From an uncultured bacterium (GTDB lineage Bacteria > Krumholzibacteriota > Krumholzibacteriia > JACNKJ01): a stretch of DNA of 64,000 nucleotides. The notes below the pieces were generated by a model, which ran no database searches, had not been told where the DNA came from, and saw nothing but the letters and a program-made list of their open reading frames with translations. Each line of letters starts with the position of its first letter. Positions within the stretch are counted from its first letter, which is position 1. A program made the position numbers and the translations under genes. Shown one piece after another: positions 1,564 through 51,467 of this stretch. Location: NCBI GenBank assembly GCA_964627205.1, contig CAZVHI010000009.1, positions 33,735 through 97,734 of the forward strand, in the 5' to 3' direction.

Positions 1564-2883
1564 GTGGAGGGACTTCTCATGTCCAAGAAACTCTCCAGTA
1601 CCTTGATTCGGATCACGATCCTCGTCGTCATCGTTGCGTTTCTTGCCGCGCCGAACCAGTCTGCAGCGCAATCATCGTGCGACCAGCGCGCCTCCACCAC
1701 TGCCTGTCCGCCGCTTCCTCCACCTACCGGTACGGTCGTCCAGGTCGACAACGAATCCGAATTACGAAACCTCGCCGAGAACGCAGCAGAGAACACGACG
1801 ATTCTCGTATCCGCGAACACGTATGCCATGCAAGATTACGTCCGTGTGGTCAGCGACGGCATCGCCATCCGCGGCGCCACTGGGAATCGCGACGATGTGA
1901 TCCTCGATTTCGGCGGCATGGTGGGGGGACATTTCGGCATTCTCGTCGAAGGCGATGATGCGACCATAGCCGATCTGACGATTCGCAACGCCAGCGATCA
2001 TGGTGTTTCCATCCAGGGCCGTGACCGGCCCATCCTCTACAACCTGCACATCCAGGACATCGGCGATCAGCTCGTCAAGGTCAACCCTTGGGGCGATGGC
2101 AGCTAGAACGGTCTGCTGGCCTGCTCCTGCCTGGAGTACAGCGACAGCGCGCCCGATGCATACACCAACGGCATCAGCGCCCACGATGCGCACGACTGGG
2201 TGGTCCGCGACAACGTGTGGCGGCGCATCCGCAGCGCGATGGGGGATCCCGTGCCGGCGATCCTGTTCTGGTCGGCGTCGTCCGGGACCATCGTCGAACG
2301 CAACTTGCTGGTGGATTGCTCCGGCGGCATCGCCTTCGGCAATTCGGGCCAGGGGCCCGGCAGCCACAGCGGGGGCATCGTGCGCAACAACATCTTCTAT
2401 GCCGAGCTCGAGCACGATATGGCCATCCAGATGGTCCATGCCGCAGGCTGGCTAATGGCTCACAATACCGTCATCGGGCTCATGCCGATGTCCGCCTGGT
2501 GCATGGAAGCGCGGTTTGCGGATACGTCGGGGACCTTTGCTTACAACCTCAGCAACTTGGACATCTTCCACGATCGTGACGGGGCCCAGGGCATCGTGCA
2601 GGGAAATGTCACCCATGCGACAACGGACTGGTTTGTCGACGCCGATGACGCGGACCTCCATCTTCTGGCCACGACAACCGACGCCATCGACCAGGCGGCC
2701 GAACTGGCCGATGTGACCGACGATTTCGACGGCGACCCGCGGCCCATGGGCACGGCCCCCGACGTGGGCGCCGACGAGTACGACGGGTCGCAGCCCGTCA
2801 ATGCGACCTCGTCCTGGAGCGCGTTGAAGGCGCTCTTTCGCGAGGCGGGCGAACGCCAGGCTCCGCGCGCCGGATCGCAGTGA
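1564..2883 (+). pseudogene. Secreted right-handed beta-helix (pectate-lyase fold) protein interrupted by an in-frame TAG at 2104-2106; C-terminal SWSALKALF motif
   Basis: Signal peptide (MSKKLSSTLIRITILVVIVAFLAAP). Beta-helix repeats continue in the same frame across the TAG (...NPWGDGS*NGLLACSCLEYSDSAPDAYTNGISAHDAHDWVVRDNVW...). TAG is used as a normal stop elsewhere in the window. Could instead be two genes or a sequencing error. Confidence 0.55.
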
Positions 2884-8871: not shown

Positions 8872-11316
8872 CTACTGGACGACGAGCAGCTTCTTCGTGC
8901 CCTTCTCGTTGTGGCCGGTGAGCGGGTTGCTCGCCCAGACGCCGGCGATGTAGGCGCCGCTGGGAACCTGGACGCCCGCGTCGCTCAGGCCGTCCCAGCC
9001 GAGCAGGTGGTAGCCGCCACCCATGGGCTCGCCGTCCTTGAGGACGCGCACCAGGCGGCCGCTGACGTCGAAGATCTTCACGGTGACGTCGGCGTCCGCC
9101 GCGGTCGCGAAGGCGATGTTCGTGAACGGGTTGAAGGGGTTCGGGTAGCTCTGCACTGCGCCGAGCAGGCGGTCGCCCGAGGGCACCCAGTCGCCGACGG
9201 CGGTCAGCTCGCCAAGCGGCTCGCTGCCGCCGGACTCGTGATAGCGCGCCGCGAACTCCTGCAGGTACATGTTGGCCACGCTCTGGTCATGGATGATCAG
9301 CGTGTTCTCGTCGTTGGAACTGTCGGCGCTGAAGCTCCAGTTGTGACTGCCGGTGACCACGAGGGGATCGTCGTCCACCCAGTTCACGTCGACGATCATG
9401 TACTTGTGGTGGAGCAGGCGGTTGCCGGGCAGGGGCGTGTCGATCCAGACGTCGGCGGGGATGTCCCAGGCGTAGGGCGAGCAGGGATCGCCGGCCATCT
9501 GATAGTAGACGCTGCCGTTGTAGCAGTCGCCCAGGCCCTCGTCGAAGACGCCGCGGATCTCCAGGTCGCCGCCGAGGGCGGCGCGGTGGTCGTACATGGC
9601 GTCGGAGAGGTTGTAGTTCGTGAAGGCCAGGATAGCGAAGTAGACCGAGTGGTCGGCGGTCTCCATGGCCTCGGTGATCTTCCCGTGGGTGCCGTCGCTC
9701 GGGCTCATGTACTGCTGGACGCGCAGGCCGTTGATCAGGAACTCGTGCGGCGTGTCGTCCACCTTGTTGCGGCCCATGCGCGCGTAGGTGGAGTTGGGGG
9801 TCTGCGTGTCGCTGCCCCACATCTCGTTGAACTCGAGCGTGTAGGCCTGCGCGAGGCCCGCGTCCTGGATCTTGACCGCGTTGTTCACGTCGTCGTTGCC
9901 GGAGATGCTCATGTTGGCGCTGCCGGTCCAGACCCAGTCGTTGTAGGGATCCGCGTCGCGCGCGTCGATGGTCACGAACTTGTTGTGCATGATGCCGTCG
10001 CTGCCGTCACCGCCGTGGTTGCCCCCGTAGGCGCTGGTGATGTAGGGGATGCCGTGGCTGGCGCAGTAGTCCGCGGCGGCCGACGAGTTGTTCTCGTCGA
10101 TGATGATGCGCACCAGGCAGCCGCGGTTGTGGGCGTTGACCAGGGCGTCGCGCACGTTGTTCAGGCTGAAGCTGTAGAGGCAGGCGTCCACCGAGTAATC
10201 GGCCTGGTTGATCTGAACGGTCAGGAGCGAGGAGAGCCCCATCATCACCGGGACCTCGTTGCCCTCGTCCGCGTAGTCGTGATCCGCGGTGAAGCTCATG
10301 TAGACGTGCAACTCACCGGGCTGGTCGTTGGCGGTGGCCAGCAGCTGGTCGGGGCCGTAGCGCGTGCCCTCGCCGTCGCTGCTCTTGGCACGGAAGTGGT
10401 AGACGCTGTTCGGGTCGAGGCCGGTGATCTCCACCGTGTGCTCGGTCTCCTCGGCGAGGGGATCGCCGGCGGTGTTGCCGTAGCTGTCGTCGACGCCCCA
10501 CTCGATCTCGCTCGAGCCGGGGGAGGACGTCTCGAAGTAGATCGTCGCGCTGTTCTCTGTGATCGCGATCACCTCGGGCAGGCCCACGATGGGCGGGCCG
10601 GACTCGTGCGTGAGGACGTCGCTGGCGAAGCGCGGGACGATCTCGTAACCGTCCGTGTAGGGCGAGCTGCTATCGAACTGCTTCAGGATGCCGATGACGT
10701 CGAAGACCGCGCCGGGGTCCGGGCTGCCGTTGGCCGTGGTGTCCTTGTCGATGAAGAGCAGGGCGGTGTCGGTACCGTCGCTGATGTCGATGAAGGAGTT
10801 GCTGCTCTGGGGCGTGATGGGCCAGGGATCGCCACCGACGATGCTGACGTCATTGATACGGATCAGGCGGCCCTCGTCGGGCTCGCTGTAGTCGCCCAGG
10901 AAGGTGGCGTTCAGCTCGGCGCAGGTGATGATCAGGGGATCGGGCAGGCCGGAGCCGGGACCGTGGTTGGTGATCGTCGTCTCGCCGGTGCTGGTACCCA
11001 GCTCGGTGAGGCCGTTGTACTGGTCCACGCGGGCGGTCACCGTGATGCTGTCGCCGAGTTCGGCCACGTAGCTGGCGGCGCCGCCGCTCACCCAGACGTT
11101 CACGCCGGCCGTGGCGTCCTGGAGGTAGATCTCCAGGTTGTAGAGGCTGTAGGTGAAGTTGGGGCTGGTCACGACCCCGCGGACCGTCACCACCTCGTCC
11201 ATCATCGTGGGCACGCCGGTGGCGTCGTTCTGGTGTACGTCGATGATGTCGATGGCCAAGGCCGGCAGGGCGATGCCCAGAACCGCCAGCGCGACGAGCA
11301 GGCTGTGCAGACGCAT
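8872..11316 (-). CDS. Secreted phospholipase-D-superfamily protein (two HKD motifs; nuclease or phospholipase) with FN3-like region and FlgD-Ig-like / T9SS type-A C-terminal domain
   Basis: Signal peptide MRLHSLLVALAVLGIALPALA. HKD motifs IMHNKFVTID...GSANMS and LHHKYMIVD...GSHNWS. C-terminus SYPNPFNPFTNIAF...VKIFDVSGRLVRVL...WDGLSDAGVQVPSGAYIAGV matches the Por_Secre_tail family. Confidence 0.8.
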   Translation of the reverse strand: MRLHSLLVALAVLGIALPALAIDIIDVHQNDATGVPTMMDEVVTVRGVVTSPNFTYSLYNLEIYLQDATAGVNVWVSGGAASYVAELGDSITVTARVDQYNGLTELGTSTGETTITNHGPGSGLPDPLIITCAELNATFLGDYSEPDEGRLIRINDVSIVGGDPWPITPQSSNSFIDISDGTDTALLFIDKDTTANGSPDPGAVFDVIGILKQFDSSSPYTDGYEIVPRFASDVLTHESGPPIVGLPEVIAITENSATIYFETSSPGSSEIEWGVDDSYGNTAGDPLAEETEHTVEITGLDPNSVYHFRAKSSDGEGTRYGPDQLLATANDQPGELHVYMSFTADHDYADEGNEVPVMMGLSSLLTVQINQADYSVDACLYSFSLNNVRDALVNAHNRGCLVRIIIDENNSSAAADYCASHGIPYITSAYGGNHGGDGSDGIMHNKFVTIDARDADPYNDWVWTGSANMSISGNDDVNNAVKIQDAGLAQAYTLEFNEMWGSDTQTPNSTYARMGRNKVDDTPHEFLINGLRVQQYMSPSDGTHGKITEAMETADHSVYFAILAFTNYNLSDAMYDHRAALGGDLEIRGVFDEGLGDCYNGSVYYQMAGDPCSPYAWDIPADVWIDTPLPGNRLLHHKYMIVDVNWVDDDPLVVTGSHNWSFSADSSNDENTLIIHDQSVANMYLQEFAARYHESGGSEPLGELTAVGDWVPSGDRLLGAVQSYPNPFNPFTNIAFATAADADVTVKIFDVSGRLVRVLKDGEPMGGGYHLLGWDGLSDAGVQVPSGAYIAGVWASNPLTGHNEKGTKKLLVVQ

Positions 11317-22280: not shown

Positions 22281-23846
22281 CTATTTGAGCAGCGTCAGCT
22301 TTCGCGTCCGCGAGTGACCACTTGCGTCCAGGCGGCAGATGTAGACGCCGGACGCGAGCGGCCCACCCTCCGCGTCGCGGGCGTCCCAGGCGACTGCGTG
22401 CCGGCCGGGTCCGCGTAGAGCACTGTCGAGCAAAACGGCCACGCGCCGCCCGGCGAGGTCGTGGATAGCCAGGGTCACCCGCGCGGGAGCCAGCAGGGTG
22501 AAGGCGATCTCGGTCTTTGGGTTGAACGGATTGGGGTGGTTCTGGGCGAGTGTGAAGCCGATGGGCGCCGGAGCATCCACGGCAGTCGGATCGCAGCCCA
22601 TGGCATAGGCCCCCATGAGGTGGCCGCAGTCGTTGTTCTCCGGCAGGCAGGGCGAGTCCTCGGCTAAGTGAAAGTCCCCGGCCGACGGCGCGCAGAAACG
22701 GGGATCGGCCGAGATGTTGCTGTAGATGCCGGTTTGGTCCTGTAGGCTTCCAAGATAGTCGCCACCCACGTTCCCGTAGACGTCGCAGCACCAGACCATC
22801 GCGTCACTGAAAACGTCAAAGAGGTAGATGCCGCCGCCCTCGGATGAGAAAGCGACGATAGTCTGCATCAGCACGAGCCAGGCTCCGTCCCGGCCATGGA
22901 GTGCGCCGCCCCGGCTGCCGGTTTCTAGTGCCACCTCGGCGCGGTTGCCGTGGAATGTGCACTTGTTGAACTCCGGCGCGGCGTTCACCACACAGGCTGC
23001 CCCGCCCTCGCCTGACGTGGGAAAGTTGACGTCGTCATCCACGAGACTTGCCTCAGCCTTGTTCCCATCGAAGAGGCAGTACTCGAACAGCGCGTCGGCG
23101 TACCAGCCACAATAGACGGCCCCGCCATAGCCGGCCGAGTGGTTGATCTCGTCCGTCCATACGTCGACTGCGCGATTGCGCAGGAAACGAGCGTTGTAGA
23201 ACTCGGGCGTACAATCTGACAAATACACGGCGCCGCCCCGCCGTCCCTCGTTCCCCTCGAAGATCACGTTCGTGAAGATGGGGCTGCCTGCCTCCGAACA
23301 GAACACGGCCGGTCCGTAGGCCGCGCTATTGTTCCGGAATATACAATCCTCGACGACGGGTGAGGCGTCGCCGTGGATGGAGAGCGCAGCACCCTCCTTG
23401 TAATGGCCGCCGAGCGGGCCGTAGCAGTTTTCGAACACGAGGTTCTGCAGGGTCGGGGAGGCGCCGTCGATCCTGACAGCCGCATCGTACCAGTAGTACG
23501 CATAGGCGCCGCGGAACGTGATCCCGCGGAGCACTGTGCCCGGCCCCTCGCCGTTGCGGATATAGAAGATGCTTCGGGGGTCCGCGTTCTCGAGGATGGG
23601 GAACTCGGCGCCCTTCAGGCCGGTCACGGTGATCGCCTTGCCTGTGAAGTCGATCTCGACAAAGCCCTCACCGCTGTAGGTGCCAGGCTCGACGAGGATG
23701 CTGTCGCCGTCGGTTAGAACGGAAATCGCTTCCTGGATCGTCGCTACCTGCGTCGGCACTACGACTGTGTTGGCGCCGGCGTTGGCGGCAAGGATCAGCA
23801 GCAGGAAAAAACCGGAGCGCCCTATGATGCGAGCATCCATCGCCAC
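22281..23846 (-). CDS. Secreted right-handed beta-helix protein with FlgD-Ig-like / T9SS type-A C-terminal domain
   Basis: Signal peptide. Beta-helix repeats (NNSAAYGPAVFC, GNEGRRGGAVYL, NRAVDVW...). C-terminus LAQNHPNPFNPKTEIAFTL...LAIHDLAGRRVAVL...WDARDAEGGPLASGVYICRL. Confidence 0.8.
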   Translation of the reverse strand: MAMDARIIGRSGFFLLLILAANAGANTVVVPTQVATIQEAISVLTDGDSILVEPGTYSGEGFVEIDFTGKAITVTGLKGAEFPILENADPRSIFYIRNGEGPGTVLRGITFRGAYAYYWYDAAVRIDGASPTLQNLVFENCYGPLGGHYKEGAALSIHGDASPVVEDCIFRNNSAAYGPAVFCSEAGSPIFTNVIFEGNEGRRGGAVYLSDCTPEFYNARFLRNRAVDVWTDEINHSAGYGGAVYCGWYADALFEYCLFDGNKAEASLVDDDVNFPTSGEGGAACVVNAAPEFNKCTFHGNRAEVALETGSRGGALHGRDGAWLVLMQTIVAFSSEGGGIYLFDVFSDAMVWCCDVYGNVGGDYLGSLQDQTGIYSNISADPRFCAPSAGDFHLAEDSPCLPENNDCGHLMGAYAMGCDPTAVDAPAPIGFTLAQNHPNPFNPKTEIAFTLLAPARVTLAIHDLAGRRVAVLLDSALRGPGRHAVAWDARDAEGGPLASGVYICRLDASGHSRTRKLTLLK

Positions 23847-24302: not shown

Positions 24303-24662
24303 TCAAGACAGCAGCTTCGCCACGGCATCGCGAAAATGGCGGATCTGCTCCAGAAAGTCCGCGTCGTCCATGCCCACATAATCGTAGACCGACAGATTCC
24401 GCGCGTTCAGGAACCGGTTCCATGTCTCGAGATCACGGATCAGCCGCAGTTGGGCCGCGGCCTTGAGCGCGTCGCGCGGACTGTAGACCTCGAGGCCGGC
24501 ACGATCGGCTTCTCGCTTGAAGCGCTTCCAGGCGTATTCGAAGGTGGTCTCGAAAGCTTTTGCCAGTGCGGCGAAGCGGAGTGGATTTGCAGGCTCGGCC
24601 TCCTGCTCGCGCAATGCGGCGTCCAGAAGAGCGCAGGCCTGACCGAGCTTTTCGTCATTCAT
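24303..24662 (-). CDS. hepT: HepT-like HEPN-domain protein (HI0074 family; nucleotidyltransferase substrate-binding protein), toxin component
   Basis: Matches HI0074/HepT family (FETTFEYAWKRFK, PRDALKAAAQLRLI). The Rx4-6H region reads RNLSVYDY (Tyr where the catalytic His is expected). Overlaps the upstream MNT gene by 8 bp. Confidence 0.75.
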   Translation of the reverse strand: MNDEKLGQACALLDAALREQEAEPANPLRFAALAKAFETTFEYAWKRFKREADRAGLEVYSPRDALKAAAQLRLIRDLETWNRFLNARNLSVYDYVGMDDADFLEQIRHFRDAVAKLLS

Positions 24663-25245
24663 GGAGCTTCATCCCCGCCTTTCGCAGCAGCTCGCACCAG
24701 ATCCCATGCGAGCCAGCCAAGAATACAAGATCCTCCGCCAGACCGCGAAGGAAGGATGCCTCCGCTCGGCTGAGGTCGACGAGCTGAGCTGTCAGCAAGG
24801 ACTCCTGATTCCATTCACTGACGCGATCGAGCAGTCGCGAGAACCTGGCGAAATCGAGAACGTCCGGACTGAACACGGCGATGTCGTAGTCGGAGTAAGG
24901 TTTCGCTGTCCCGCGAGCACGGGATCCGAAGAGCGCGAATACGGCCTCTGGAACGATCGTGTGCAGTTGATCGACGAGACTCGACACGCCCAAGCCCGGC
25001 ACCAGCCTGCGCCGCAGGCGCAGATTCAGGATCTCCGCCGGTGAGAGTTCGAGCGTCGCGAGCATCCTGGCCAGAGCGCTCGGCAGGCTTGCCTTGCCCG
25101 CCAGGTATTTGCTGACGGTATTGCGGTGCAAGCCCAGGGCATGCGCGAAATCCGTGGCGGAGGAGAATCCGTGCTCGTGCATGGCCTGCTGCAGGCGCGT
25201 GGCATCGAGGGTGATCTCTGCGTGTTCAGCTGTCATAGCCTGCAT
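24655..25245 (-). CDS. mntA: Minimal nucleotidyltransferase (MntA-like antitoxin) fused to an N-terminal XRE-type HTH domain
   Basis: N-terminal HTH (FSSATDFAHALGLHRNTVSKYLAGK). C-terminal NTase motif GSRARGTAKPYSDYDIAVF (GS...DxD). Palindrome ACTGTGC-attc-GCACAGT at 25252-25269 lies just upstream. Confidence 0.8.
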   Translation of the reverse strand: MQAMTAEHAEITLDATRLQQAMHEHGFSSATDFAHALGLHRNTVSKYLAGKASLPSALARMLATLELSPAEILNLRLRRRLVPGLGVSSLVDQLHTIVPEAVFALFGSRARGTAKPYSDYDIAVFSPDVLDFARFSRLLDRVSEWNQESLLTAQLVDLSRAEASFLRGLAEDLVFLAGSHGIWCELLRKAGMKLHE

Positions 25246-25359: not shown

Positions 25360-27069
25360 TCAGCGCAGGAGGACGATCCGGCGGGAGAGGGTCTCGCTGC
25401 CAGCCCGGAGCTGCAGCAGATAGACGCCGCTGGCCTGGGGCTCTCCGTCCGCGCCCTGCCCGTTCCAGAGGGCCGCGGCCATTGCGCCGGGCGAGGCTCC
25501 CTCGGCGAGGATGCGCAGCAAGCGCCCACGCACGTCGTAGACGCGCAGCGAAACCGGCGCCATGCCCGCCGGCGCCGCGAAGCGGATCTCACCGCCCGGC
25601 CGGAAGGGGTTCGGCGCCGCGAGTCGCAGGGCGTTCGCGGCCCCCGGCTCCCAGTCCGCGGCCGTCAGGTCCAGCTCCTCGAACATCGAGACCAGGTCGC
25701 TGCCACTGCGCGCGAGGACGAGATCGCGCCGCGGATCAGTGCCGTCGACAAAAGCAAAGTCCGCGCTGCGCAGGGGATCGCCCACGCTTAGCGGCGGCGC
25801 CAGCTCGCGCGCGTAGGTTATGCCGTCGTAGCCGATCACGTCCACCTGGCCCTCGAAGGAGCAGGCGACGACCGTCGGAAAGCCGTGCTCGTTATCCGGG
25901 CCGATCGCGAGGTCCATCACGTTGCCGGGGATCGCAAAGGGGCTCGTCCACACGGGCGTGAAGGTGTCGTCCGCGTAGGACTCGTAGATGTAGATCACCT
26001 CGTTGCTGCCGAGGACCAGCTCGTTCTCCTCGTCGCCGTCCAGGTCGGCGATGGCGCCGCTGATCGGCAGCCCCGTCGTCGTCGCCTCGAAGAGCTTGTG
26101 TTCCCAGGTTCCCGAGCTGGGATTGTGTTCGAGGCGGCGGATGTAGGTGGGGTAGCCCGGCCAGCCGCCTACCTCGAGCAGGACCTCGCCCTTGCCGTCG
26201 TTGTCGGCGTCGCCGGGCTTGCAGCCGAAGAGGTAGCTCACCGTGTCGTAGTCGTGCGCGAGCGTATAGACGTTGTCACCGATCGCCCCGCTGTGCTCGA
26301 AGAGCTTCAGCGAGCCGCCGTCGGTGGACGAACTGCCCGCGGCGATGATCTCGACAGCTCCGTCGCCGTCCGTATCGGCCGTCTGGATCTCGCGCACCTG
26401 CCAGTCGACCTGGAAGCCCAGCGTCCGCGCCTCGAAGGTGTCGTCGCCCGTGTTCTCCCACAGGTAGAGGCGGCCGAGCGTGCCCGCCTCGCCAGCGATG
26501 ACCTCGCGCAGCATGTCGCCGTCGGTCTCGCCGGTGTCCAGCGCAACGATCGATGGCGTGCTCTGCTGCGGGCTCGCCCAGACCTGGGCGAAGTGATCGT
26601 CCGCGCCGTTTTCGAAGACGCGCACGAGCGTGCCCGGGTAGTAGTAGGCCTGGCCGACGATCTCGCGCGCGCCATCGCTGTCCAGGTCGTCGACCTCGCT
26701 GTCCCAGACGTTCTGCAGCGCGCCGCCCGTGTTCCACTTCTCCGTGAAGCCGAGGATCTCGCGCCCAGACGGGCCCGCCAGCTCGCGGCCCGCGAACAGC
26801 AGCGTGTCGCCGGCCAGCAGGTCGGGCAGGCCGTCGCCGTCGACGTCGGCGAAGCGCAGAGCACCATCATCCCAGACTGCGCGCGATGCGGCGGGAAGAC
26901 GCGTGATCACGTCGCCCGTCTCGCTCCGCAGCACGAGATCGCCACCCTCCCGGGCGGCGTCGATCCGCTCCAGTGTTCCGTCCTGCTCGAGATCCGTGAC
27001 GAGCGTGACTCCGCCCGCGGAGGCGGCGACAAGCAGGGCACTGAAAGTAACAAGGATTCGGGCAGACAT
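25360..27069 (-). CDS. Secreted FG-GAP/VCBS-repeat (integrin-alpha-like) protein with FlgD-Ig-like / T9SS type-A C-terminal domain
   Basis: Signal peptide MSARILVTFSALLVAASAGG. FG-GAP repeats (DVDGDGLPDL, DLDSDGAREI, DTDGDGAVEI, DADNDGKGEV, DLDGDEENEL). CTD LAAPNPFRPGGEIRF...LRVYDVRGRLLRIL...WNGQGADGEPQASGVYLLQL. Start lies 2 nt after the stop of the upstream gene. Confidence 0.8.
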   Translation of the reverse strand: MSARILVTFSALLVAASAGGVTLVTDLEQDGTLERIDAAREGGDLVLRSETGDVITRLPAASRAVWDDGALRFADVDGDGLPDLLAGDTLLFAGRELAGPSGREILGFTEKWNTGGALQNVWDSEVDDLDSDGAREIVGQAYYYPGTLVRVFENGADDHFAQVWASPQQSTPSIVALDTGETDGDMLREVIAGEAGTLGRLYLWENTGDDTFEARTLGFQVDWQVREIQTADTDGDGAVEIIAAGSSSTDGGSLKLFEHSGAIGDNVYTLAHDYDTVSYLFGCKPGDADNDGKGEVLLEVGGWPGYPTYIRRLEHNPSSGTWEHKLFEATTTGLPISGAIADLDGDEENELVLGSNEVIYIYESYADDTFTPVWTSPFAIPGNVMDLAIGPDNEHGFPTVVACSFEGQVDVIGYDGITYARELAPPLSVGDPLRSADFAFVDGTDPRRDLVLARSGSDLVSMFEELDLTAADWEPGAANALRLAAPNPFRPGGEIRFAAPAGMAPVSLRVYDVRGRLLRILAEGASPGAMAAALWNGQGADGEPQASGVYLLQLRAGSETLSRRIVLLR

Positions 27070-27071
27070 GG

Positions 27072-28094
27072 CTAGTAGAGGGCCTTCACGGCGCTCCAGC
27101 TGAGCTCGGCGGTGGCGGTCGCCTGGCAGCCCACCGGCAGGGCGCCGACGAGCCCGCAGTCGTTGGCGGCCGGCGCGCAGGGCGAGTCGCTTTGAAGATA
27201 CAGGTTGCCACTGCCGAGGACGCCGCAGAACTGGGGATCCACGGAGAAGTTGCCCCGCAGGTAGCGCTGCTCGGCGACGGCGCCCGTCCAGTCGCCGCCC
27301 GCGTTGCCGAAGAGGTTGCAGCAGCCCAGCGTGATCGTGCCCTGACCGTCCTTCCAGATCGCCGCGCCCTCTTCGCTGTAGCTGACGATGCAGCAGTCCA
27401 GCTCCTGCTGCGATGTGGACTCGCAATGGATGACGGCGCCCGACGCGGCGTCGTTCTCGCTGAACGTGCAGCGGACCAGGGTGAAGTCGCCCTTCGGGCC
27501 GGAGTAGATCGCGCCGCCGTCGCTGTCCGCATGGTTGCGATAGAAGACGCAGTCGGTGGCGAGCAGGTCGGTCTCGATGAGCTTGACGCCGCCGCCGCGC
27601 CAGGCCCGGTTGTTCCGGATGACGCAGCCGGTGAGCTCGAAGCTGGACCAGCTCAGGTTCAGCCCGCCCTTCGAGTCCTCGATGATGCAGTTCCGGATCA
27701 GCAGCTGCGTGAAGACGGCGCCGATCGCCCAGCCGCCGGTGTTGCGGATGCCGATCCCGTCGATCACCGCCATCTCGGGCCAGGAAGGTATGTCGGGTCC
27801 GTCGTGGAAGTCGAGGCCGCGGCTCTCGCCCTGGCAATCGATCACGCAACGGCTCGGGTCGCCGCTCTCCGAGAGCAGATGGAGCACCTTCCGCCGGATG
27901 AGGATGTCGTGGTTGCCGGCGCCCTTGTAGACGCCGTCGGCGAGGAGAATCGTGTCGCCGCTCGCGCAGGCGTCCACGGCGGCCTGGATACTGGGAAAGA
28001 CGCCGCTTCCATTGGGCTCGAGATGATAGACAGTGGCGCCCACGACCGCGGGAACGGCCAGGATGAGGAACATCGCCAGGAGGGAAGGGCGCAT
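27072..28094 (-). CDS. Secreted right-handed beta-helix protein ending in the C-terminal motif SWSAVKALY
   Basis: Signal peptide MRPSLLAMFLILAVPAVVGA. GGAGGA RBS. Beta-helix repeats (NNRAWRGGGVKL, NHADSDGGAIYS, NDAASGAVIHC, SEEGAAIW, GNAGGDW). Ends ...ELSWSAVKALY immediately before TAG. Confidence 0.8.
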   Translation of the reverse strand: MRPSLLAMFLILAVPAVVGATVYHLEPNGSGVFPSIQAAVDACASGDTILLADGVYKGAGNHDILIRRKVLHLLSESGDPSRCVIDCQGESRGLDFHDGPDIPSWPEMAVIDGIGIRNTGGWAIGAVFTQLLIRNCIIEDSKGGLNLSWSSFELTGCVIRNNRAWRGGGVKLIETDLLATDCVFYRNHADSDGGAIYSGPKGDFTLVRCTFSENDAASGAVIHCESTSQQELDCCIVSYSEEGAAIWKDGQGTITLGCCNLFGNAGGDWTGAVAEQRYLRGNFSVDPQFCGVLGSGNLYLQSDSPCAPAANDCGLVGALPVGCQATATAELSWSAVKALY

Positions 28095-44525: not shown

Positions 44526-45056
44526 ATGAAGAGAATACTGGTTCTGCTGACCCTGCTGGCTGCCGTCGCAGCGCCGGCCTTGGCCGATCGGGACATGACG
44601 GGCAGCTGGGCGGAGATCCAGGCCCCCGCCATCGCCAATCCCGGCGACACCGTCGTCTTCAAGCTCTTTGTTTTCAACGGTAGTCCGGACCTCGAGTGGA
44701 CCCGGGAAGTGATCATCTACTTCCCCGAGAACTTCGACGTGCTGGACGGCTGGTACGACGACCTCGGCCAGGACTGGGCCTTCGACTTCAGCATCGACGG
44801 CTTCCACGGCAACATCGCCGTCTTCACCGACGCCGATGGCGGTTTCGGCGAGATCTACGACGGCACCGGCGGCGAATTCTACGCGCAGGTCTACCTGCAC
44901 GAGAACGTTGACTGCGGGCCCATCCACATCGACTGGAAGCAGTGGGGCGACGGCTACGGCAGCGACCCCCACTGGATCCGGGGCGAGCTGCCCTACGTGC
45001 TCTGCGTGATTCCGACCCAAGAGAGCAGCTGGTCGACGGTCAAGAGCCTGTACTAG
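44526..45056 (+). CDS. Small secreted protein (paralogue 1 of 2) ending in C-terminal SWSTVKSLY
   Basis: gGAGGGcatcATG start context identical to paralogue 2. Signal peptide MKRILVLLTLLAAVAAPALA. Conserved blocks shared with paralogue 2 (EW..E.II.FP, DADGG.GEIY.G.GG.F, PH...GE). Ends ...SSWSTVKSLY*. Confidence 0.75.
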   Translation: MKRILVLLTLLAAVAAPALADRDMTGSWAEIQAPAIANPGDTVVFKLFVFNGSPDLEWTREVIIYFPENFDVLDGWYDDLGQDWAFDFSIDGFHGNIAVFTDADGGFGEIYDGTGGEFYAQVYLHENVDCGPIHIDWKQWGDGYGSDPHWIRGELPYVLCVIPTQESSWSTVKSLY

Positions 45057-45113
45057 AAGCGACCCGGGCCGACTGGATCCGGCCCCGGGCTCGGCTCGAA
45101 TAGCACCCAGGAA

Positions 45114-45137
45114 ACCCGCGCACGCACGCGGGTTTTC
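45114..45137 (+). terminator. Rho-independent terminator after paralogue 1
   Basis: CCCGCG-cacgca-CGCGGG stem followed by TTTTCG. Confidence 0.55.
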
Positions 45138-45345
45138 GCATGTTTCGGGTGGTTTATCTTGAAATTTTAGAGATTCGCATCTCTTGAACCCTTCCCCGCA
45201 TTCCTGCCATAGTTTGAGACGCTGGGAGCGTTAATGCGCATAACAGGAGTTCGCGAACCCGCTCTCGGCGAGGCCACTGGAAGAGCCCCCATGGAAGGCT
45301 CGTATACCGGATTCCGGGTACAACATTGCAGCAATGGAGGGCATC

Positions 45346-45885
45346 ATGAAGAAACTGTTTCTGACAGTCGCGGTGCTGGCTCTATTCGCAACACCAGCAC
45401 TGGCCGACCGCAGTATAGAGGGTAGTTACGTAGAACTTATCGAACCGCAGGGATTGCTCTGCGCGTGCTCGACCTATGAGTTCGTCTTCTACGTCTGGAA
45501 CAACTCCATGGATGTGGAGTGGATCGCCGAAATCATCATCACCTTCCCCGACTGCTGGGAGATCGTGGCCGGTTCCGACTGGTACACGCCGGATCCCGGC
45601 GCCGCGGGTCCCTTCAACTTCATGTTCATCGGTGGCGGTAACGTGGCCCACTGGGCGGACGCCGATGGAGGCTGGGGCGAGATCTACGGCGGCGAGGGTG
45701 GACACTTCGGCGTGACCGTTCACATCTGCCCCGACATGGTGGGCGATGTGCCGATCTACTGGGGCCTGCAGGGCGACATCTACGGCAACGAGCCGCACTA
45801 TGTCGACGGCGAAATCTGGGTCATTGTCTCCGACACCACACCAGTCGAGGACAGCACCTGGAGCAAGGTCAAGGGCCTCTACTAG
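45346..45885 (+). CDS. Small secreted protein (paralogue 2 of 2) ending in C-terminal TWSKVKGLY
   Basis: Signal peptide MKKLFLTVAVLALFATPALA. ~40% identity to paralogue 1 across the mature region. Ends ...DSTWSKVKGLY*. Confidence 0.75.
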   Translation: MKKLFLTVAVLALFATPALADRSIEGSYVELIEPQGLLCACSTYEFVFYVWNNSMDVEWIAEIIITFPDCWEIVAGSDWYTPDPGAAGPFNFMFIGGGNVAHWADADGGWGEIYGGEGGHFGVTVHICPDMVGDVPIYWGLQGDIYGNEPHYVDGEIWVIVSDTTPVEDSTWSKVKGLY

Positions 45886-46029: not shown

Positions 46030-49000
46030 CTAGTCGAGTGAGATGCGATAGAGCGCGCCGCCGTTGCAGCCGGCCCAGAGCGTGCGTCCGTCCTCGCCAA
46101 GACGCAGGTGCCAGACGGAGCCGTTGCCCGGGCGCATCCCAAACGGCGACCAGCTCGCGCCCGCGTCGCGGCTGACGAAGACGCCCCAGTGGTTCAGGCC
46201 GACATAGATCGTGCCCGCCTCGCTACCCGCAGCGATGGAGCGAGCGTGCGGACTTGGGATTCCCGCGTTCACCTCTTCCCAGCTCTCCCCGCCGTCGCGG
46301 CTGCGCAGCACACCGCCGCGCGAGACCGCCGCGTAGACGAGGGACGCGTCCTCCGCGTCGACCGCGAAGCCCTTGACGCCCGTGCGCGGGCGATTCCAGA
46401 CCTCGCGCCAGCTCTCCCCGCCGTCGTCGCTTATCAGAATTCCCTTCCCGTATGTGCCCAACAGCGCCTTGCCTTCGGCGCCCGGCAGGGCGATCACCGC
46501 GTAGGCGTCGACACGACCCGGTCCGGACTCGGGCCGCCGCCACTCGGCGCCCCGCTCCAGCCCGAGGTAGACACCGCCGCCGGGCCCCGAGGCGGCGGCG
46601 AGGAGGTCGCCATTCGGGAAGACGGCCAGCATGTTCGCGCGCAGCGTACCGAGCGCGTCGGTGGCTAGGATCCAGCTTTCGCCGCCGTTGTCCGAGCGAT
46701 ACACCCCATCCGCGCAGGCGGCGAAGAGGCGATGTGTCTCCTCGTCGAAGGCGAGGCTCCAGGCAAAGCTCTTCTCCGGCTCGGGCCCCGCGAAGATCCA
46801 TGCGTCCGTACTACTCCCGTGAGCGCGGGAAAACACGCCGCTCGACGTGGCCGCATAGAGGCGCGGCTCGCCCTGCCAACTCAGCTCCTCGAGCCACCAC
46901 ACCGACGCGGCGCCGAGGCCCGCGCTGCTCGGCGTCCAGCTCGCACCGGAGTTTACGCTTCGGGCTGCGCCGCTTCCCGTGGCGGCCAGCAGCGTGCCGT
47001 CCTCTCCACGCCACGCGAGTGCGCGCACAATAGGATCGGCGAGGCCCTCGCCTTGCAGATGCCAGGGCTCCGAGCCCTCGAGCCACGCGACGCCCTTCCC
47101 GTTGCAGGCAGCGGCGATCCTGCCCGCGCCGGGCTCGCGGTATAGGCGGTAGATGCCCACGCGCTCCAGACCGGGCGCGGCCTCGCGCCAGCTCAGCCCG
47201 CCGTCCGTGCTCTGGAAGACGCCGCTGGAGCTGCCGACGAGGATGCGCGCACCGCCGTCGGCGGCGAGGAGGTCCCAGACGGGGGTCTTGCCGAGGCCCT
47301 CGCCGTGGAGCTCCCAGCTTGCGCCGCGGTCGCGCGAGAGGTGGAAGTCGCCGCGCCCGCCGGCGAGGACGCGATCGCCCTCCTCGTCCAGCGGCAGGAG
47401 GCAGAGCACGCGCTCGCCGCTCGCGGAGCCGGAGGCCGGCTCCCAGTGCGCGCCGCGGTCGGCGCTGCGAAAGATCCCCTGCTCCGTGGCCGCGAGGACT
47501 TCATCACTCGCGGGCAGGACGAGCAGATCCCAGCAGCGCGGCGCGTCCCCGGGGTAGGCGCCGCGCTCCCAGTTCGCGCCGCCGTCCGCGCTGCGGAAGA
47601 CGCCACTCGAGCTGCCGACGTAGAGCAGGCCACTCGCGTCGCGGGCGAGGCAGGAGACCCAGTAGTTCTCCAGCGCAGCGCCGCGGGGCGCCCAGCTCTC
47701 GCCGAAGTCCGTGGACCGGAAGATGCCCGCCCCGTGCACGGCGGCGAGTACGGTATCGCCGCCGGCGAAGGCGAGCAAGTCGTGCAGCGCGCCGCCCGGC
47801 GGGGCCAGGACACGCTCCCAGGCCGGCGCCGCTACGACGGGGCGGGGTGTCGGGGAGGCGGCGGCGCGGGGGACGGGCGCGTCCGCAGCGCGAGGCGACG
47901 CGGCGGCGGTCCCCCGCCCGCGCAGCACGGCGATGTCGTCGCTGTGGTAGTTCGACACCACGACGTCGTCGAAACCGTCGCGGTCGAAGTCGCCCACGAC
48001 GAGCGACATGGGCGTGTTGTTCACGCCGTAGGCAGCGTCCAGGACGAAGGTGCCGTCACCTCTGCCCAGGAGTAGAAGCACGTTGTCGCCGTGGAAGTCG
48101 GCCACCGCGAGGTCGCTGTTGCCGTCGCGATCGAAGTCGCCGGGAGCGAGGTGGCGGGGGCGCACGCCACGGCTGCAGTCCGTGCCCGTGATGCGGCAGG
48201 ACGAGCCACCCGCCCAGCCGACGTCCGGCAGGTCCGACTCCGCGAAGGTGCCTTTGCCGTCCCCCGTCAGAATGATCACCTGCCCACCGAAGAAGTCGGC
48301 GACGGCCAGGTCGAGGTGCCTGTCGGCGTTCCAGTCGCCGGCGACGGCCGCGCGCGGGCCGAGGCCCACCGGCAGGCTCTCGCCGAGGCGGAAGGCGCCG
48401 CCTTCCTTCCCGAAGAGCAAGGTCAGCGTGGCGTCGTCGCGGCTGAGCACGGCCACGTCCTCGCGCCCGTCCTCGTCGAAGTCGCCCGCGACGAGGTAGC
48501 ACGCGGCCTTGCCGATCTCGCCGCCGAGCGGCTCGCCGAAGCTGCCGTCGCCGCGGCCGAGCAGCAGGGTGGCCGTGCCGCTCCAGTGGTTCGCCGCCAT
48601 GATGTCGAGCGCGCGGTCGCCATCGGCGTCGAGGGCGAGGAGGCCCCAGGGGCCGTCGCCCATCGGGATCGCCTCCGCTTCGGCGAGGGAGCCGTCCCCC
48701 GCGCCGCGGAGGAGCGTGAGGGTGTTGCGCTGGTGGTTCGCCGAGATCACGTCGCTCTTGCCGTCGGCGTCGAAGTCCGCCGCGCAGACGTACCAGGATT
48801 GTGCGCCGATCGGGAAGGAGCTCGCGAGTTCGAACGAGGCGCCAGTCCCCCCGAGGAGCAGGGACACCGATTGCCCGAAGAGGTTGCCCACGGCGAGGTC
48901 GGGCAGGTCGTCCCCGTCGAAGTGGGCGAGGGCGAGGGAGGTCGGGCCGTCGCCGGCGGGAAAAAGGGGCGCGACCGCGAAGCTGCCGTCGCCGATGCCG

Positions 49001-50166
49001 AAGGCCAGCGAGAGATTGTCGCTGTAGAGGTTCGCCACGAGGAGGTCTGCGTGCGTGTCGCCGTCCATGTCCGCGGCCGCGAGGACTACGGGCTGTTCCC
49101 CGACCACGACGCGCCCGGCCGGCGCGAAGCTGCCGTCGCCCCTGCCGAGGAAGCAGGCGACGGCGTGCTCCTTGCGAAGGGCGCAGGCGAAGTCCAGGCG
49201 CGTGTCGCCGTCGAGGTCTGCGAGCGCGATGGCTTCCGGCTCCTTGCCCACCGCGATCTCGCTCGCCCGCTCGAAGCCGCCGCCGGGCAGGCCCCGCAGC
49301 AACGTGACGGCGCCTTCCCTCTTGCCGAGGACAAGAAGGTCGAACAGAGCGTCTTCGTCGACGAGGCCGCTCGCCAGCGCGGAGATAGACATGCCGACGT
49401 CCAGCGCGAACATCTCCTCGAATCCGCCGTCGGCTCGGCCGCGGAGTATGCTGACGTGTTCCTTGATGGCGGAGCCGATCGCGAGATCGATAAGCCCGTC
49501 GCGGTCCCAGTCGCCCGCGAGCAGCACGCTCGCCAGCCAGCGATTGCCGAGGGAACGGATTTCCGTCCACGTCTCGCCGCGACCTGTCCCGGCCCGGGCG
49601 TCATCGGTCTCCGCCCCTGCGCTGGCGCCGTCTTCCCCGGGCCTTGCGCGATAGACAGCGACACCGCTCTCCTCCCGATCCAGGAGGACGAGCTCGAGCC
49701 ATCCGTCGCCGTCCAGGTCGACGGGACAGCAGAGGCCTGCCGGCGGAAGCCCTGTCATCGCCGAGGGCACCTCGAAGCCGCCCTCGGCGCCGACGCGGAG
49801 CAGCATCATGCCCTCTTCGGTCGCGAGGATCAGCTCGGGAAGGCCGTCGCCCTCGAGATCGAGGAGCCAGGCCTGGCGGGGGACGAAGTCCAGCTCGAGG
49901 CGCTCGCCGCGCGCGAGGAGGCCGCCCGTCTGTCCCTGGAAGAAGCGCAGCCCCTCGCGCTCCAGCACGACGACGTCGGGGCTGCCGTCGCGGTCCATGT
50001 CGGCGACGGCCAGCCAGCGGGGATCCTTGTCGGTCGGGTAGTCGATGCGGGCTTCGAGGAGGCCAGGGCGGGAGGCGGCGTCCCCTCCGCTCAGCGCGAG
50101 GAGACAGACGATCAGCAAGACTGAGGACAAGGCGATGCAGGGTCCGCGCGCGAGGGGCCCGGTCAA
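46030..50166 (-). CDS. Giant secreted protein (1378 aa): N-terminal FG-GAP/VCBS repeat region plus C-terminal BNR/Asp-box (sortilin/Ycf48-like) beta-propeller repeats
   Basis: Signal peptide (LSSVLLIVCLLALSGG). FG-GAP repeats (DFDADGKSDV, DFDEDGREDV, DFDRDGNSDL, DFDRDGFDDV). More than 8 BNR motifs (SxDGGESW, SRDAGASW, SDNGGESW). TTG start overlaps the TGA of the upstream membrane GT gene (TTGA). Confidence 0.75.
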   Translation of the reverse strand: MTGPLARGPCIALSSVLLIVCLLALSGGDAASRPGLLEARIDYPTDKDPRWLAVADMDRDGSPDVVVLEREGLRFFQGQTGGLLARGERLELDFVPRQAWLLDLEGDGLPELILATEEGMMLLRVGAEGGFEVPSAMTGLPPAGLCCPVDLDGDGWLELVLLDREESGVAVYRARPGEDGASAGAETDDARAGTGRGETWTEIRSLGNRWLASVLLAGDWDRDGLIDLAIGSAIKEHVSILRGRADGGFEEMFALDVGMSISALASGLVDEDALFDLLVLGKREGAVTLLRGLPGGGFERASEIAVGKEPEAIALADLDGDTRLDFACALRKEHAVACFLGRGDGSFAPAGRVVVGEQPVVLAAADMDGDTHADLLVANLYSDNLSLAFGIGDGSFAVAPLFPAGDGPTSLALAHFDGDDLPDLAVGNLFGQSVSLLLGGTGASFELASSFPIGAQSWYVCAADFDADGKSDVISANHQRNTLTLLRGAGDGSLAEAEAIPMGDGPWGLLALDADGDRALDIMAANHWSGTATLLLGRGDGSFGEPLGGEIGKAACYLVAGDFDEDGREDVAVLSRDDATLTLLFGKEGGAFRLGESLPVGLGPRAAVAGDWNADRHLDLAVADFFGGQVIILTGDGKGTFAESDLPDVGWAGGSSCRITGTDCSRGVRPRHLAPGDFDRDGNSDLAVADFHGDNVLLLLGRGDGTFVLDAAYGVNNTPMSLVVGDFDRDGFDDVVVSNYHSDDIAVLRGRGTAAASPRAADAPVPRAAASPTPRPVVAAPAWERVLAPPGGALHDLLAFAGGDTVLAAVHGAGIFRSTDFGESWAPRGAALENYWVSCLARDASGLLYVGSSSGVFRSADGGANWERGAYPGDAPRCWDLLVLPASDEVLAATEQGIFRSADRGAHWEPASGSASGERVLCLLPLDEEGDRVLAGGRGDFHLSRDRGASWELHGEGLGKTPVWDLLAADGGARILVGSSSGVFQSTDGGLSWREAAPGLERVGIYRLYREPGAGRIAAACNGKGVAWLEGSEPWHLQGEGLADPIVRALAWRGEDGTLLAATGSGAARSVNSGASWTPSSAGLGAASVWWLEELSWQGEPRLYAATSSGVFSRAHGSSTDAWIFAGPEPEKSFAWSLAFDEETHRLFAACADGVYRSDNGGESWILATDALGTLRANMLAVFPNGDLLAAASGPGGGVYLGLERGAEWRRPESGPGRVDAYAVIALPGAEGKALLGTYGKGILISDDGGESWREVWNRPRTGVKGFAVDAEDASLVYAAVSRGGVLRSRDGGESWEEVNAGIPSPHARSIAAGSEAGTIYVGLNHWGVFVSRDAGASWSPFGMRPGNGSVWHLRLGEDGRTLWAGCNGGALYRISLD

Positions 50167-51467
50167 CGCTGCACGTCCTCGTTCCGCTCCACGTCCTCAC
50201 TCCGCTCCACATCCCCGTTCAGCTCGAGGCTGCGGCGCTTGAGCTCCAGGAATCGCGCCTTCTTGGCCTGGGTCTCGGGCAGACGCGCCCTCTCCTCGTA
50301 GGCCTTGTCCAGGGTCGAGACGACGAAGACCGACGAGATGATGAAATAGGCGGGAACCAGCAGTGGCACTAGCCTGCGCGCGCCCCTCCCGACCAGCACG
50401 CGGAACATCTTCATGGTTCCCGTGGCGAGGATCAGGCAGAAGCCCGCCGAGGCCAGGTAGAGGTACTTCGTGTTCAGCCAGAAGCCTGGCGTGTAGAAGA
50501 AACAGAAGGGTAAAATGGTCACGAAGGCCCAGGCGATGAAGAAGCGCAGGGTCGTGTTGCCGAAGACGAAGCCGTAGGCGGCGTAGCTGAAGATCACGGT
50601 GCCCAGGATCGGCCGGATCCAGCTGCTCCAGTTGAAGAGGAAGGTGAGAAAGCCGCTGCCCTCCACGACGTCGGAATAGTGCAGCGGGTAGACCATGTGG
50701 ATCAGGTAGCCGGGAATGTTACTGAGGAAGTTGCCCAGGAAGAAACCGATCCCCCAGCCCTCGGGATAGGACGAGCTGACCGCCTTGAACGCGGCCCACT
50801 GGAAGCCGGTCAGGACGCCGCCGAACACGAGCAGGATCAGGATCGGCCCGGCGAGGACCGGACGCTGCCGCTCTTTCTTGAAGAATACGTTGTATGCGAG
50901 GAGCACGCCGATGCCGCTCAGGAAGGCGAACTTGTTGATGATCGAGAGGGCGAAGAAGAAGAGCGTGCCCGCGAACCAGACGGAGAGGATACGCCCCTTG
51001 CCCTGGGTCTCGTTCATCACGTAGAACATGACGGTCAGAAGGAAGACCGTGTGCATGAGGATGCCGCTCACACCCGCGGCGTACATCACCTCCTTACCGT
51101 AGTTGCCCACGGTGAACGCGAAGAGGATGGCGCTCAGGAAGGCCACGCCGAAGTCCCGCAGCGTCTGGTGGACGAGGAGGAAGAGGAGGAAGGCGTTGAT
51201 GGCGTGGATGAAGATGTTCAGCAGGTAGTAGCCCGCCGGCCTGTCGCCGAAGAGCGCGTACTCCAGGCGGTGGAAGCTGTTCACCAGCGGGTGGGCCTCG
51301 GAGGTGGCCTGGACGTAGTCCTCCTCCGGTTGCACGTCGAGACTCTTGGCCAGGTACTCGAACTCCGCGTCGGTCCAGAACTCGTTGTCGAGGATCTGGG
51401 CGAACAGCAGCACGCTGATCCCGAACAGGATCAGGAAGAGCAACGCATTGTTGTCTTTGAGCGACAT
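50163..51467 (-). CDS. Polytopic membrane protein, TMTC/DUF1736-like GT-C glycosyltransferase family (paralogue of 19249-20742)
   Basis: Multiple TM helices. Loop motif VNSFHRLEYALFGDRPAGYYLLNIFIHAINAFLLFLLV. ATG at 51467; the long N-terminal Arg-rich extension in the ORF track was rejected. Translationally coupled to the giant gene. Confidence 0.65.
   Translation of the reverse strand: MSLKDNNALLFLILFGISVLLFAQILDNEFWTDAEFEYLAKSLDVQPEEDYVQATSEAHPLVNSFHRLEYALFGDRPAGYYLLNIFIHAINAFLLFLLVHQTLRDFGVAFLSAILFAFTVGNYGKEVMYAAGVSGILMHTVFLLTVMFYVMNETQGKGRILSVWFAGTLFFFALSIINKFAFLSGIGVLLAYNVFFKKERQRPVLAGPILILLVFGGVLTGFQWAAFKAVSSSYPEGWGIGFFLGNFLSNIPGYLIHMVYPLHYSDVVEGSGFLTFLFNWSSWIRPILGTVIFSYAAYGFVFGNTTLRFFIAWAFVTILPFCFFYTPGFWLNTKYLYLASAGFCLILATGTMKMFRVLVGRGARRLVPLLVPAYFIISSVFVVSTLDKAYEERARLPETQAKKARFLELKRRSLELNGDVERSEDVERNEDVQR

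Follow-up and report, generated by a model that had tools for sequence, protein, structure and literature searches.

Tagged genes of the window

The stretch of DNA analysed here (64,000 nucleotides of contig CAZVHI010000009.1, from an uncultured bacterium of the Krumholzibacteriota; hereafter 'the window') carries four open reading frames (ORFs) whose translated products share a short C-terminal tail, [ST]WSx[VL]KxL[YF] (hereafter 'the tag'), which in three of the four stands directly before the stop codon. All four carriers bear signal peptides. Genes of the window recur on scaffolds of the SUTE22-1 metagenome (ENA ERZ23498639) and on a 103-kb JGI contig, and their closest named homologues carry the label Candidatus Krumholzibacteriota. 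The first carrier is a right-handed beta-helix protein of 340 amino acids (aa) with a type-I signal peptide and matches to Pfam Beta_helix and Chlam_PMP (27072-28094, minus strand). It ends in SWSAVKALY (27075-27101, minus strand; stop 27072-27074), and the tag in its full extent, TATAEL-SWSAVKALY, occupies 27075-27119 on the minus strand, where translation and AlphaFold together indicate a linker and a two-turn helix. The second is a secreted protein of 176 aa (44526-45056, plus strand), predicted by AlphaFold and Foldseek to be a cohesin- or Ig-like beta-sandwich and without a match in Pfam and NCBIfam scans; it closes with SWSTVKSLY (45027-45053, plus strand), the last part of the tag IPTQES-SWSTVKSLY at 45009-45053 (stop 45054-45056), and five out of five homologues of this protein also terminate in the tag. 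In tandem with it lies the gene for a 179-aa paralogue, 41% identical in alignment (45346-45885, plus strand), which ends in TWSKVKGLY (45856-45882, plus strand), with the tag TPVEDS-TWSKVKGLY at 45838-45882 and the stop at 45883-45885.

The fourth copy lies near the end of a beta-helix gene at 1564-2883 (plus strand), where the tag-like segment PVNATS-SWSALKALF (2794-2838, with SWSALKALF itself at 2812-2838) is followed by a 14-residue extension, REAGERQAPRAGSQ (2839-2880), and a stop at 2881-2883. A previous sequence-only reading of this DNA, which had singled out the tail as a candidate sorting tag, counted this gene among the carriers; its tail and its 14-aa extension were confirmed by translation, but the frame is interrupted by a TAG at 2104-2106. 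We therefore read 1564-2883 as most probably a decaying pseudogene or an artefact of assembly rather than a working variant. The product of 2200-2883 matched the choice-of-anchor Q family (NF041518) immediately upstream of its tail, at 22.9 bits against a cut-off of 25 (E 7.4e-5); no such match was reported for the product of 27072-28094.

A relaxed regular expression, [STAG]W[SGA]x[VLIM][KR]x[LIVM][YFW], applied to all six frames of the window returned those four copies and zero others, so that the first observation, one tail on four proteins and directly before the stop in three of them, was reproduced both by translation and by pattern search. Shuffling the window 200 times gave a mean of 0.04 matches, against four in the real sequence, and none of the shuffled matches was terminal. 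The window copies are encoded by differing synonymous codons (AGC/TCG/TCC, GTG/GTC/TTG and CTC/CTG), and a search for an RNA fold common to them and spanning the motif found none; the RNA structures detected were ordinary terminator-like hairpins 3' of two tagged genes only. The synonymous differences, together with the lack of a shared fold, therefore indicate that selection acts on the peptide, and on these grounds a reading of the motif as a DNA repeat or RNA element was dropped.

Distribution, position and anatomy of the tag

One genome per GTDB species was scanned with a codon-restricted pattern for [ST]W[ST]xVKxLY plus stop, which identified 81 loci concentrated in a few metagenome-assembled genomes (MAGs): the Krumholzibacteriota MAGs JAFGBK01, JAWKQQ01 and JAJDAC01, the MAGs CAYNQX01, CAYPGS01, CAYFNT01 and others, and a Latescibacterota-labelled MAG with its relatives. 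Around 20 matches were dispersed over unrelated taxa, some of them without a true stop (the pattern also allowed TGG in the stop position) or not closing a long ORF, and all of these were treated as chance. Copies per MAG numbered at least 25 in JAFGBK01, at least 15 in CAYPGS01, at least 12 in CAYNQX01 and at least 10 in CAYFNT01, minimum figures given that several codons were prescribed by the pattern. The same restriction biased the scan towards Val, AAG, CTN and TAC, and variation at these positions was judged from flanking copies and homologues that the pattern had not selected.

The tag is a feature of protein ends. In 1.05 million six-frame codons, drawn from the window together with 64 loci of tag-bearing lineages, 91 of 92 copies lay within three residues of a stop, and the single remaining copy was the window's own, with its extension of 14 residues. 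Flanking copies unselected by the pattern were likewise terminal (TWGEVKTLY, SWSEIKTLYR, SWSRLKSLY, SWSQVKALF and TWTKVRSLY, each closed by a stop), and because they lay outside the selection of the search pattern, the test of terminal position is unbiased. Among 279 proteins fetched for other reasons (162,880 residues), 115 copies fell within 10 residues of the end and none was internal, in line with the enrichment at C-termini that had been expected of a genuine signal. The extreme C-terminal position first proposed is thereby upheld for the locus copies, but not for a second form of the tag, described below, in which 1-10 residues follow. A hidden Markov model (HMM) of the tail, of 15-20 positions, scored 24-38 bits on most known tags.

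A crude heuristic found signal peptides in 78 of 93 tagged ORFs; the other 15 mostly run off the end of their locus, and in some the heuristic overlooked a signal peptide that can be recognised by eye, so that a type-I signal peptide is present on nearly all carriers. The pairing of motif and export signal, initially noted on the four window carriers, extends in this way beyond the window. No lipoprotein occurred among 82 tagged proteins, and the median length of tagged cargo was 216 aa. Once their tails had been trimmed, 88 tagged proteins fell into 31 BLAST clusters, of which the biggest were the beta-helix proteins (22), a ~200-aa family with a GYVHTLG motif (12) and the window's 176-aa family (10), bearing out the contention that the shared tail is not simple paralogy. 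Pfam assigned Beta_helix or Chlam_PMP to 18 of 73 tagged proteins and CBM96, PPC, a MAM-like domain and a 3-keto-disaccharide-hydrolase-like domain to single cases, most of the others being without a Pfam family. Where source records name tagged proteins, it is as hypothetical, beta-helix or outer-membrane repeat proteins, and none is named as carrying a sorting signal.

The nine residues originally described are real, but in a sequence logo conservation begins ~6 residues before them, and the conserved unit comprises ~15 residues with the consensus [TV][AP][TAV][EAR][ED][ST]-[ST]W[SG]x[VIL]Kx[LM][YF](R). Its first part is a flexible, acidic, Thr/Ala-rich linker after the last folded element, which is often a Cys; its second is a two-turn helix, N-capped by Ser/Thr, in which Trp, Lys, Leu and Tyr/Phe are near-invariant. 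The search pattern left no freedom at W, V, K, L and Y in the logo sample, and the true variability at these positions (I/L, with rare R, M and F) was taken from homologues that it had not selected. Among homologues 37-53% identical, the tail is the best-conserved segment. Two forms can be told apart. Tyr is the last residue of the WS form in 21 of 25 beta-helix homologues, and nearly all locus copies likewise stop at the aromatic residue, whereas the 65 beta-helix homologues with the WG form (e.g. TWGAIKALYR) mostly continue with R, RE or RSE and now and then with up to 10 residues; one homologue with the WG form TWGxIKxLYR is labelled Eisenbacteria. Since the WG form extends by as many as 10 residues, the fourth window copy, with its 14, is not far outside the range of the family. 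The 0-10 residues after the motif are mostly charged and contain no hydrophobic stretch, consistent with the original statement that the tail lacks a transmembrane segment and a basic end.

Structure prediction places the tail outside the folded cargo. In the AlphaFold model of the 176-aa protein, residues 20-160 form a beta-sandwich with a predicted local distance difference test score (pLDDT) of ~90, and the tail (residues 163-176) falls below 50 and lies outside the sandwich, for which Foldseek returned generic cohesin-, Ig- or pilin-like sandwiches at a TM-score of ~0.5. The model of the beta-helix protein at 27072-28094 (69-sequence alignment, pLDDT 93.6) continues as coil after the last Cys, and residues 333-339 (WSAVKAL) are predicted as a two-turn helix (pLDDT ~77) outside the beta-helix body. 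Hydrophobic moments of the window tails are 0.27-0.34 at low mean hydrophobicity, and that of TWGAIKALYR is 0.52; overall the amphipathicity is weak.

Exchange with known C-terminal signals and gene neighbourhoods

Of 120 beta-helix homologues, 92 carry the tag, ~11 a C-terminal domain of the type IX secretion system (T9SS) and ~13 nothing, the alternatives diverging after a conserved ...DSPC..CG.IGA.PVGC. The T9SS cases (including P0011, P0033, P0036 and P0045) have a FlgD-Ig/T9SS domain of ~80 aa ending in ..VLR, and the ~13 without any signal, some of them labelled Zixibacteria, stop directly after the GC. The same alternation occurs in the window, where the beta-helix paralogues 27072-28094 and 22281-23846 are homologous in BLASTP from the signal peptide through GC(Q/D)(A/P)TA(T/V); beyond this point the former has the tag and the latter a T9SS type-A C-terminal domain (22284-22535, minus strand; FlgD_ig 28.2 bits, cut-off 27; TIGR04183 22.5 bits, cut-off 23).

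A profile search with the 176-aa family over 1.84 billion representative proteins gave 517 hits, and the proteins compared were P0156-P0274 together with those of the window at 44526-45885. Approximately 40 stand-alone members of this family terminate in the tag. Other members carry IPTL-CTERM in its place (TIGR04174, cut-off 20.5; P0253 at 25 bits and P0261 at 29 bits), further members have different tails with a transmembrane helix and basic residues, and in larger, often multidomain proteins the domain stands upstream of a T9SS type-A domain (P0187, P0198 and P0245; TIGR04183 28.8-42.6 bits, cut-off 23). The ~140-residue unannotated domain of both small tagged proteins, predicted to have a cohesin- or Ig-like fold and matched in neither of them by a Pfam or NCBIfam model, also recurs in very large multidomain proteins of up to 4457 aa. 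In the GYVHTLG family, paralogues at a single locus (L095) have either a tag-like tail or a T9SS-type C-terminus, as judged from sequence. Across these alignments the tail exchanges with established sorting signals at one position in three unrelated families, which is the key evidence behind a sorting role and lends support to the tail as a candidate sorting tag.

None of the T9SS-domain homologues has the motif upstream of its T9SS domain and, with the near-terminal position of the copies in loci and fetched proteins, this shows that the motif is not the first segment of a longer domain; neither of the two outcomes named beforehand as refuting the tag, such a domain or a lack of enrichment at C-termini, was borne out. 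Tag and T9SS domain were never found within one protein, either among the beta-helix homologues or among the Pfam-scanned tagged proteins. That the tail is distinct from the T9SS domain was also borne out by its length of ~15 aa and by the HMM searches: TIGR04183, PF18962 and PF13860 gave no hits on tails or full-length tagged proteins, 15 tail peptides compared with NCBIfam release 20 at E values up to 10 gave no matches, and in full-length Pfam and NCBIfam scans of tagged proteins no reported family spanned a tail. A literature search (motif strings, T9SS in Krumholzibacteriota or Latescibacteria, choice-of-anchor and IPTL-CTERM) found no description of the tail.

One locus contains a detached copy. 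A 30-codon orphan ORF ending in GQGHATTAARAATWSAVKALY before its stop (L017, 4429-4455, plus strand) is a near-match to the tail encoded by a beta-helix gene of that MAG (L041, 7007-7033, minus strand). About 60 nt upstream of the orphan stands an unrelated gene whose product closes with a T9SS C-terminal domain. The orphan has the appearance of a 3' end left over after rearrangement among secreted-protein genes. As the upstream gene is not a beta-helix gene, the remnant therefore shows local rearrangement only, and we dropped it as proof of anchor swapping.

All-against-all clustering of the ORFs from ~60 tagged loci revealed no untagged gene family recurring across lineages near the tags. 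An apparent neighbour in locus L011 turned out to be an aldehyde dehydrogenase, and the contexts of two WG/WS genes on large contigs were mutually unrelated. A cassette at L036 491-7947 (also in L048, L090, L093 and L094), from a clade labelled Latescibacterota, comprises MltG, a 223-aa dockerin-repeat protein, tagged genes A and B of ~200 aa each, a PorU-like gene directly downstream of the two, and SpoIID/LytB. The PorU-like protein (1399 aa) contains Peptidase_C25 and its own T9SS-type C-terminus, and its match to NF033707 (E 4e-44) reaches 150.6 bits where the cut-off is 420. When metagenomes were scanned with the tagged A/B family, the cassette came up solely in close relatives, whose PorU is 72-84% identical, and divergent members of the family (L083, L095-L097) lie in tandem arrays from which PorU is absent; PorU linkage as a general partner was dropped, being confined to one close clade.

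Pfam and NCBIfam scans recovered the T9SS-type domains that had been recognised earlier on three window genes, namely 22281-23846 (above), 25360-27069 and 8872-11316. The second of these encodes an FG-GAP protein, whose T9SS type-A C-terminal domain occupies 25363-25614 (minus strand), and the gene begins 2 nt past the stop of the tagged beta-helix gene at 27072-28094. This 2-nt junction, to which attention had been drawn, is real, but the adjacency was not seen in other lineages, and the FG-GAP gene was dropped as a partner of the beta-helix gene. The third (minus strand) encodes a secreted protein in which DUF5689 and two PLD-like nuclease domains are accompanied by a C-terminal domain of T9SS type A (8875-9147, minus strand), and its product is likely a secreted or surface-displayed nuclease; it exemplifies the presence of T9SS cargo and tagged cargo together in one genome.

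Other genes of the window include, at 46030-50166 (minus strand), one for a 1378-aa protein with about ten FG-GAP repeats and BNR/sortilin-like propeller repeats, followed at 50163-51467 (minus strand) by one for a 434-aa protein with no family match, whose 68%-identical copy in locus L073 is convergent to a tagged gene of the 176-aa family. Among the secreted-protein genes, at 24303-25245 (minus strand), lies a pair with a few-base overlap that encodes a nucleotidyltransferase (PF01909) and a nucleotidyltransferase substrate-binding protein (PF08780), resembling an MNT/HEPN toxin-antitoxin pair. The 37 confident window genes stop at TAG in 16 cases, TGA in 17 and TAA in 4, at a sequence GC content of 67.6%, and TAG is the commonest stop in related loci (53%, 64 loci); TGA normally dominates in GC-rich bacteria, so that frequent TAG is unusual. 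A stop-codon bias tied to the tag (three of three terminal copies in the window are followed by TAG) was dropped because TAG is common in these genomes: the stop after the tag is TAG in 62% of cases, against 53% for all long ORFs of the same loci.

Interpretation and comparison with known systems

On this comparative pattern, which fits a sorting signal and is otherwise hard to explain, we lean towards the reading that sees in the tail a new type of C-terminal sorting or retention signal, short and linear, one that would operate without a transmembrane segment and be read by an envelope protein. The data establish where the motif stands, its pairing with signal peptides, its spread over many unrelated families, its confinement to certain lineages, its predicted place outside the folded domain and its exchange with known sorting signals. 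We infer the sorting role, a protein rather than lipid reader, the destination and any cleavage of the tail. In the mechanism we envisage, the precursor would be exported by Sec and then cut by signal peptidase I. A conserved envelope protein found in candidate phyla of the Fibrobacterota-Chlorobiota-Bacteroidota (FCB) group would next recognise the exposed tail, either in the periplasm or at the outer membrane. Recognition would fix the final location of the cargo, most plausibly through non-covalent hand-over or docking to a cell-surface or outer-membrane component, and the tag pathway would offer another option beside the T9SS C-terminal domain, on which paralogues from the same genome rely. 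A protein reader is favoured over a lipid one because of the near-invariant residues, the N-cap Ser/Thr, the weak amphipathicity and the flexible linker. Processing of the sortase, exosortase or rhombosortase type, as presently understood, is excluded since the tail has no transmembrane segment, and the fact that residues can follow the WG motif speaks against a strict need for a free C-terminal carboxylate and so against a pure PDZ/Tsp mechanism.

A more far-reaching version of this proposal, which we regard as less likely than not but as having a fair chance, is that the tag marks an unrecognised sorting pathway in diderm FCB candidate phyla (with the labels Krumholzibacteriota, Eisenbacteria and Latescibacterota), in which a 15-residue peptide would act after Sec export through dedicated envelope machinery, moving dozens of unrelated proteins per genome to the cell surface or fixing them there, in parallel to and interchangeably with sorting of the T9SS or exosortase type. 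C-terminal sorting signals are the main handle for predicting bacterial surface proteins. To our knowledge, every short sorting signal described so far depends on a transmembrane helix together with a sortase-like enzyme embedded in the membrane, and within this superphylum we know of a single alternative, the T9SS domain of 80 residues. If our reading is true, a tail of 15 residues that lacks a transmembrane segment and fills the same slot on dozens of proteins per genome would imply an undescribed recognition mechanism, and many 'hypothetical proteins' in several uncultured phyla would form one functional class. As a sequence handle, the tail lends itself to phylogenetic profiling for its partner, to better annotation and to use as a portable tag in experiments.

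Several points weigh against the sorting-signal reading. All tag lineages are uncultured, and every functional statement made here derives from comparative genomics. The cargo consists mostly of domains of unknown function, with an extracellular destination deduced from homologues and fold types. Neither a partner nor a processing enzyme was found among the neighbours of the ~60 tagged loci. The tail has neither a transmembrane helix nor an Arg cluster, and no known mechanism can therefore be transferred to it. Finally, the WG form tolerates up to 10 trailing residues and the WS form nearly always ends at Tyr, and the two forms may be read differently.

Other explanations share some of the same evidence. 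The tail could be a minimal or indirect signal of T9SS itself, read by one of its components or carried by proteins that ride with a T9SS-domain partner and are then held at the surface. FlgD-Ig/T9SS type-A domains do occur in every sampled tag lineage, often a few kb from tagged genes, and interchange with the tag in paralogues, and the two come close together where the tagged beta-helix gene of the window is followed after 2 nt by the FG-GAP gene with its T9SS domain, and where two tagged genes stand immediately upstream of a PorU-like gene in one Latescibacterota-labelled clade. However, no similarity of the tail to TIGR04183 or PF18962 could be detected and it is too short for an Ig-like sandwich, the PorU adjacency is restricted to that one close clade (it is absent in L083 and L095-L097), and the FG-GAP pairing is unseen in other lineages; we consider dependence on T9SS unlikely. 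C-terminal helices such as those of PBP5 and MinD anchor proteins to membranes, and the short helix predicted by AlphaFold, with Trp, Val/Ile and Leu-Tyr on a common face and Lys or Arg at its edge, might similarly form a self-sufficient amphipathic, peripheral anchor to a membrane leaflet or to lipopolysaccharide (LPS). The hydrophobic moment of 0.52 in the WG form would suit such a role, but the window WS forms reach only 0.27-0.34 at low mean hydrophobicity, nine residues make a very short lipid anchor, and near-invariance of Trp, Lys, Leu and Tyr, and of the small residues beside them, over 31 families is typical of protein recognition, making direct anchoring decidedly unlikely in our estimation.

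Classical ligands of PDZ domains and Tsp have apolar or aromatic C-termini, and the WS form, ending in an aromatic residue with a free carboxylate in the 21 of 25 beta-helix homologues and nearly all locus copies, resembles them. The tail could on that basis be a maturation or turnover signal bound by a periplasmic PDZ protease or C-terminal processing peptidase of the Prc/Ctp/DegP type, an idea to which we give little credence: the WG motif is followed by 1-10 residues, often charged, so that a free Tyr carboxylate is not needed family-wide; conservation spans 15 residues, beyond the last few usually read by PDZ; and a degron does not account for T9SS or IPTL-CTERM signals at the same position in homologues. 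Paralogy, a structural cap, a translated DNA or RNA element, or chance would each make the tail no signal at all. Two of the window proteins are indeed mutual paralogues and the other two are both beta-helix proteins, but chance would supply 0.04 matches where four were found, the carriers form 31 unrelated clusters, the copies differ in synonymous codons and share no RNA structure over the motif, two AlphaFold models place the tail beyond the fold, and the frequency of TAG after the tag is near its background; these explanations are effectively refuted.

The sorting-signal reading can be set against what is known of small C-terminal signals, for which Haft (10.1101/2023.06.07.544157) lists eight attributes: (1) a location near the C-terminal end, (2) more than one copy per genome, (3) a signature with three or more near-invariant residues, (4) a stretch of strong hydrophobicity long enough to form a transmembrane helix, (5) 2-5 basic residues at the end, (6) signal peptides on the carriers, (7) carriers that are otherwise unrelated and (8) homologues without the signal or with another. 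The tail displays six of these (1, 2, 3, 6, 7 and 8) and lacks the transmembrane helix (4) and the Arg cluster (5), as the WS form terminates at Tyr and the WG form usually has one Arg. The tripartite signals IPTL-CTERM, PEP-CTERM, LPXTG, GlyGly-CTERM and MYXO-CTERM are likewise short, stand near the C-terminus, have at least three near-invariant residues, recur within a genome on unrelated carriers with signal peptides and have homologues with other anchors or none; in contrast to all of them, the tag has no transmembrane helix and at most one Arg. IPTL-CTERM (TIGR04174) is a 27-residue HMM of IPTLSEWG, a transmembrane helix and RRR, to which 15 tails gave no match at E values up to 10. The pattern [IVT]P[TV]E..[ST][ST]W[SG] (e.g. 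at 45009-45053, IPTQESSWSTVKSLY) is loosely like the IPTL-CTERM start [IV]PT[LM]SEWG of P0253 and P0261, with a one-residue offset. This likeness hints that the tag might derive from an IPTL-CTERM-like signal through loss of the transmembrane helix, an origin that we set aside because the resemblance is visual and without HMM support.

The amphipathic helices of PBP5/DacA and MinD share with the tag a short C-terminal helix behind a flexible linker, but they conserve a pattern rather than residue identity, the hydrophobic moment of the tag is weak, and MinD is cytoplasmic. The beta-signal of outer-membrane proteins (OMPs), recognised by the beta-barrel assembly machinery (BAM) and the PDZ domain of DegS, and the C-termini of chaperone-usher pilins resemble the tag in the terminal or penultimate Tyr/Phe of an exported protein. 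Tagged cargo, however, consists of soluble beta-helix or beta-sandwich proteins rather than beta-barrels, and the hydrophobic residues of the tag are spaced i, i+3, i+6/7, as in the helix that AlphaFold predicts for the tail, rather than alternating as in a strand. The T9SS type-A domain (TIGR04183/PF18962) is a folded Ig-like sandwich of 70-100 residues, unlike the coil and two-turn helix of the ~15-residue tag, with which it has no sequence similarity. The context of T9SS cargo is nevertheless present here, in the signal peptides of tagged proteins, the three T9SS-domain proteins of the window and the PorU-like gene of related loci, and the two elements are alike in standing at the C-terminus of Sec-exported, non-lipoprotein cargo from unrelated families, many times over in the same genomes and in the same slot after the last cargo domain.

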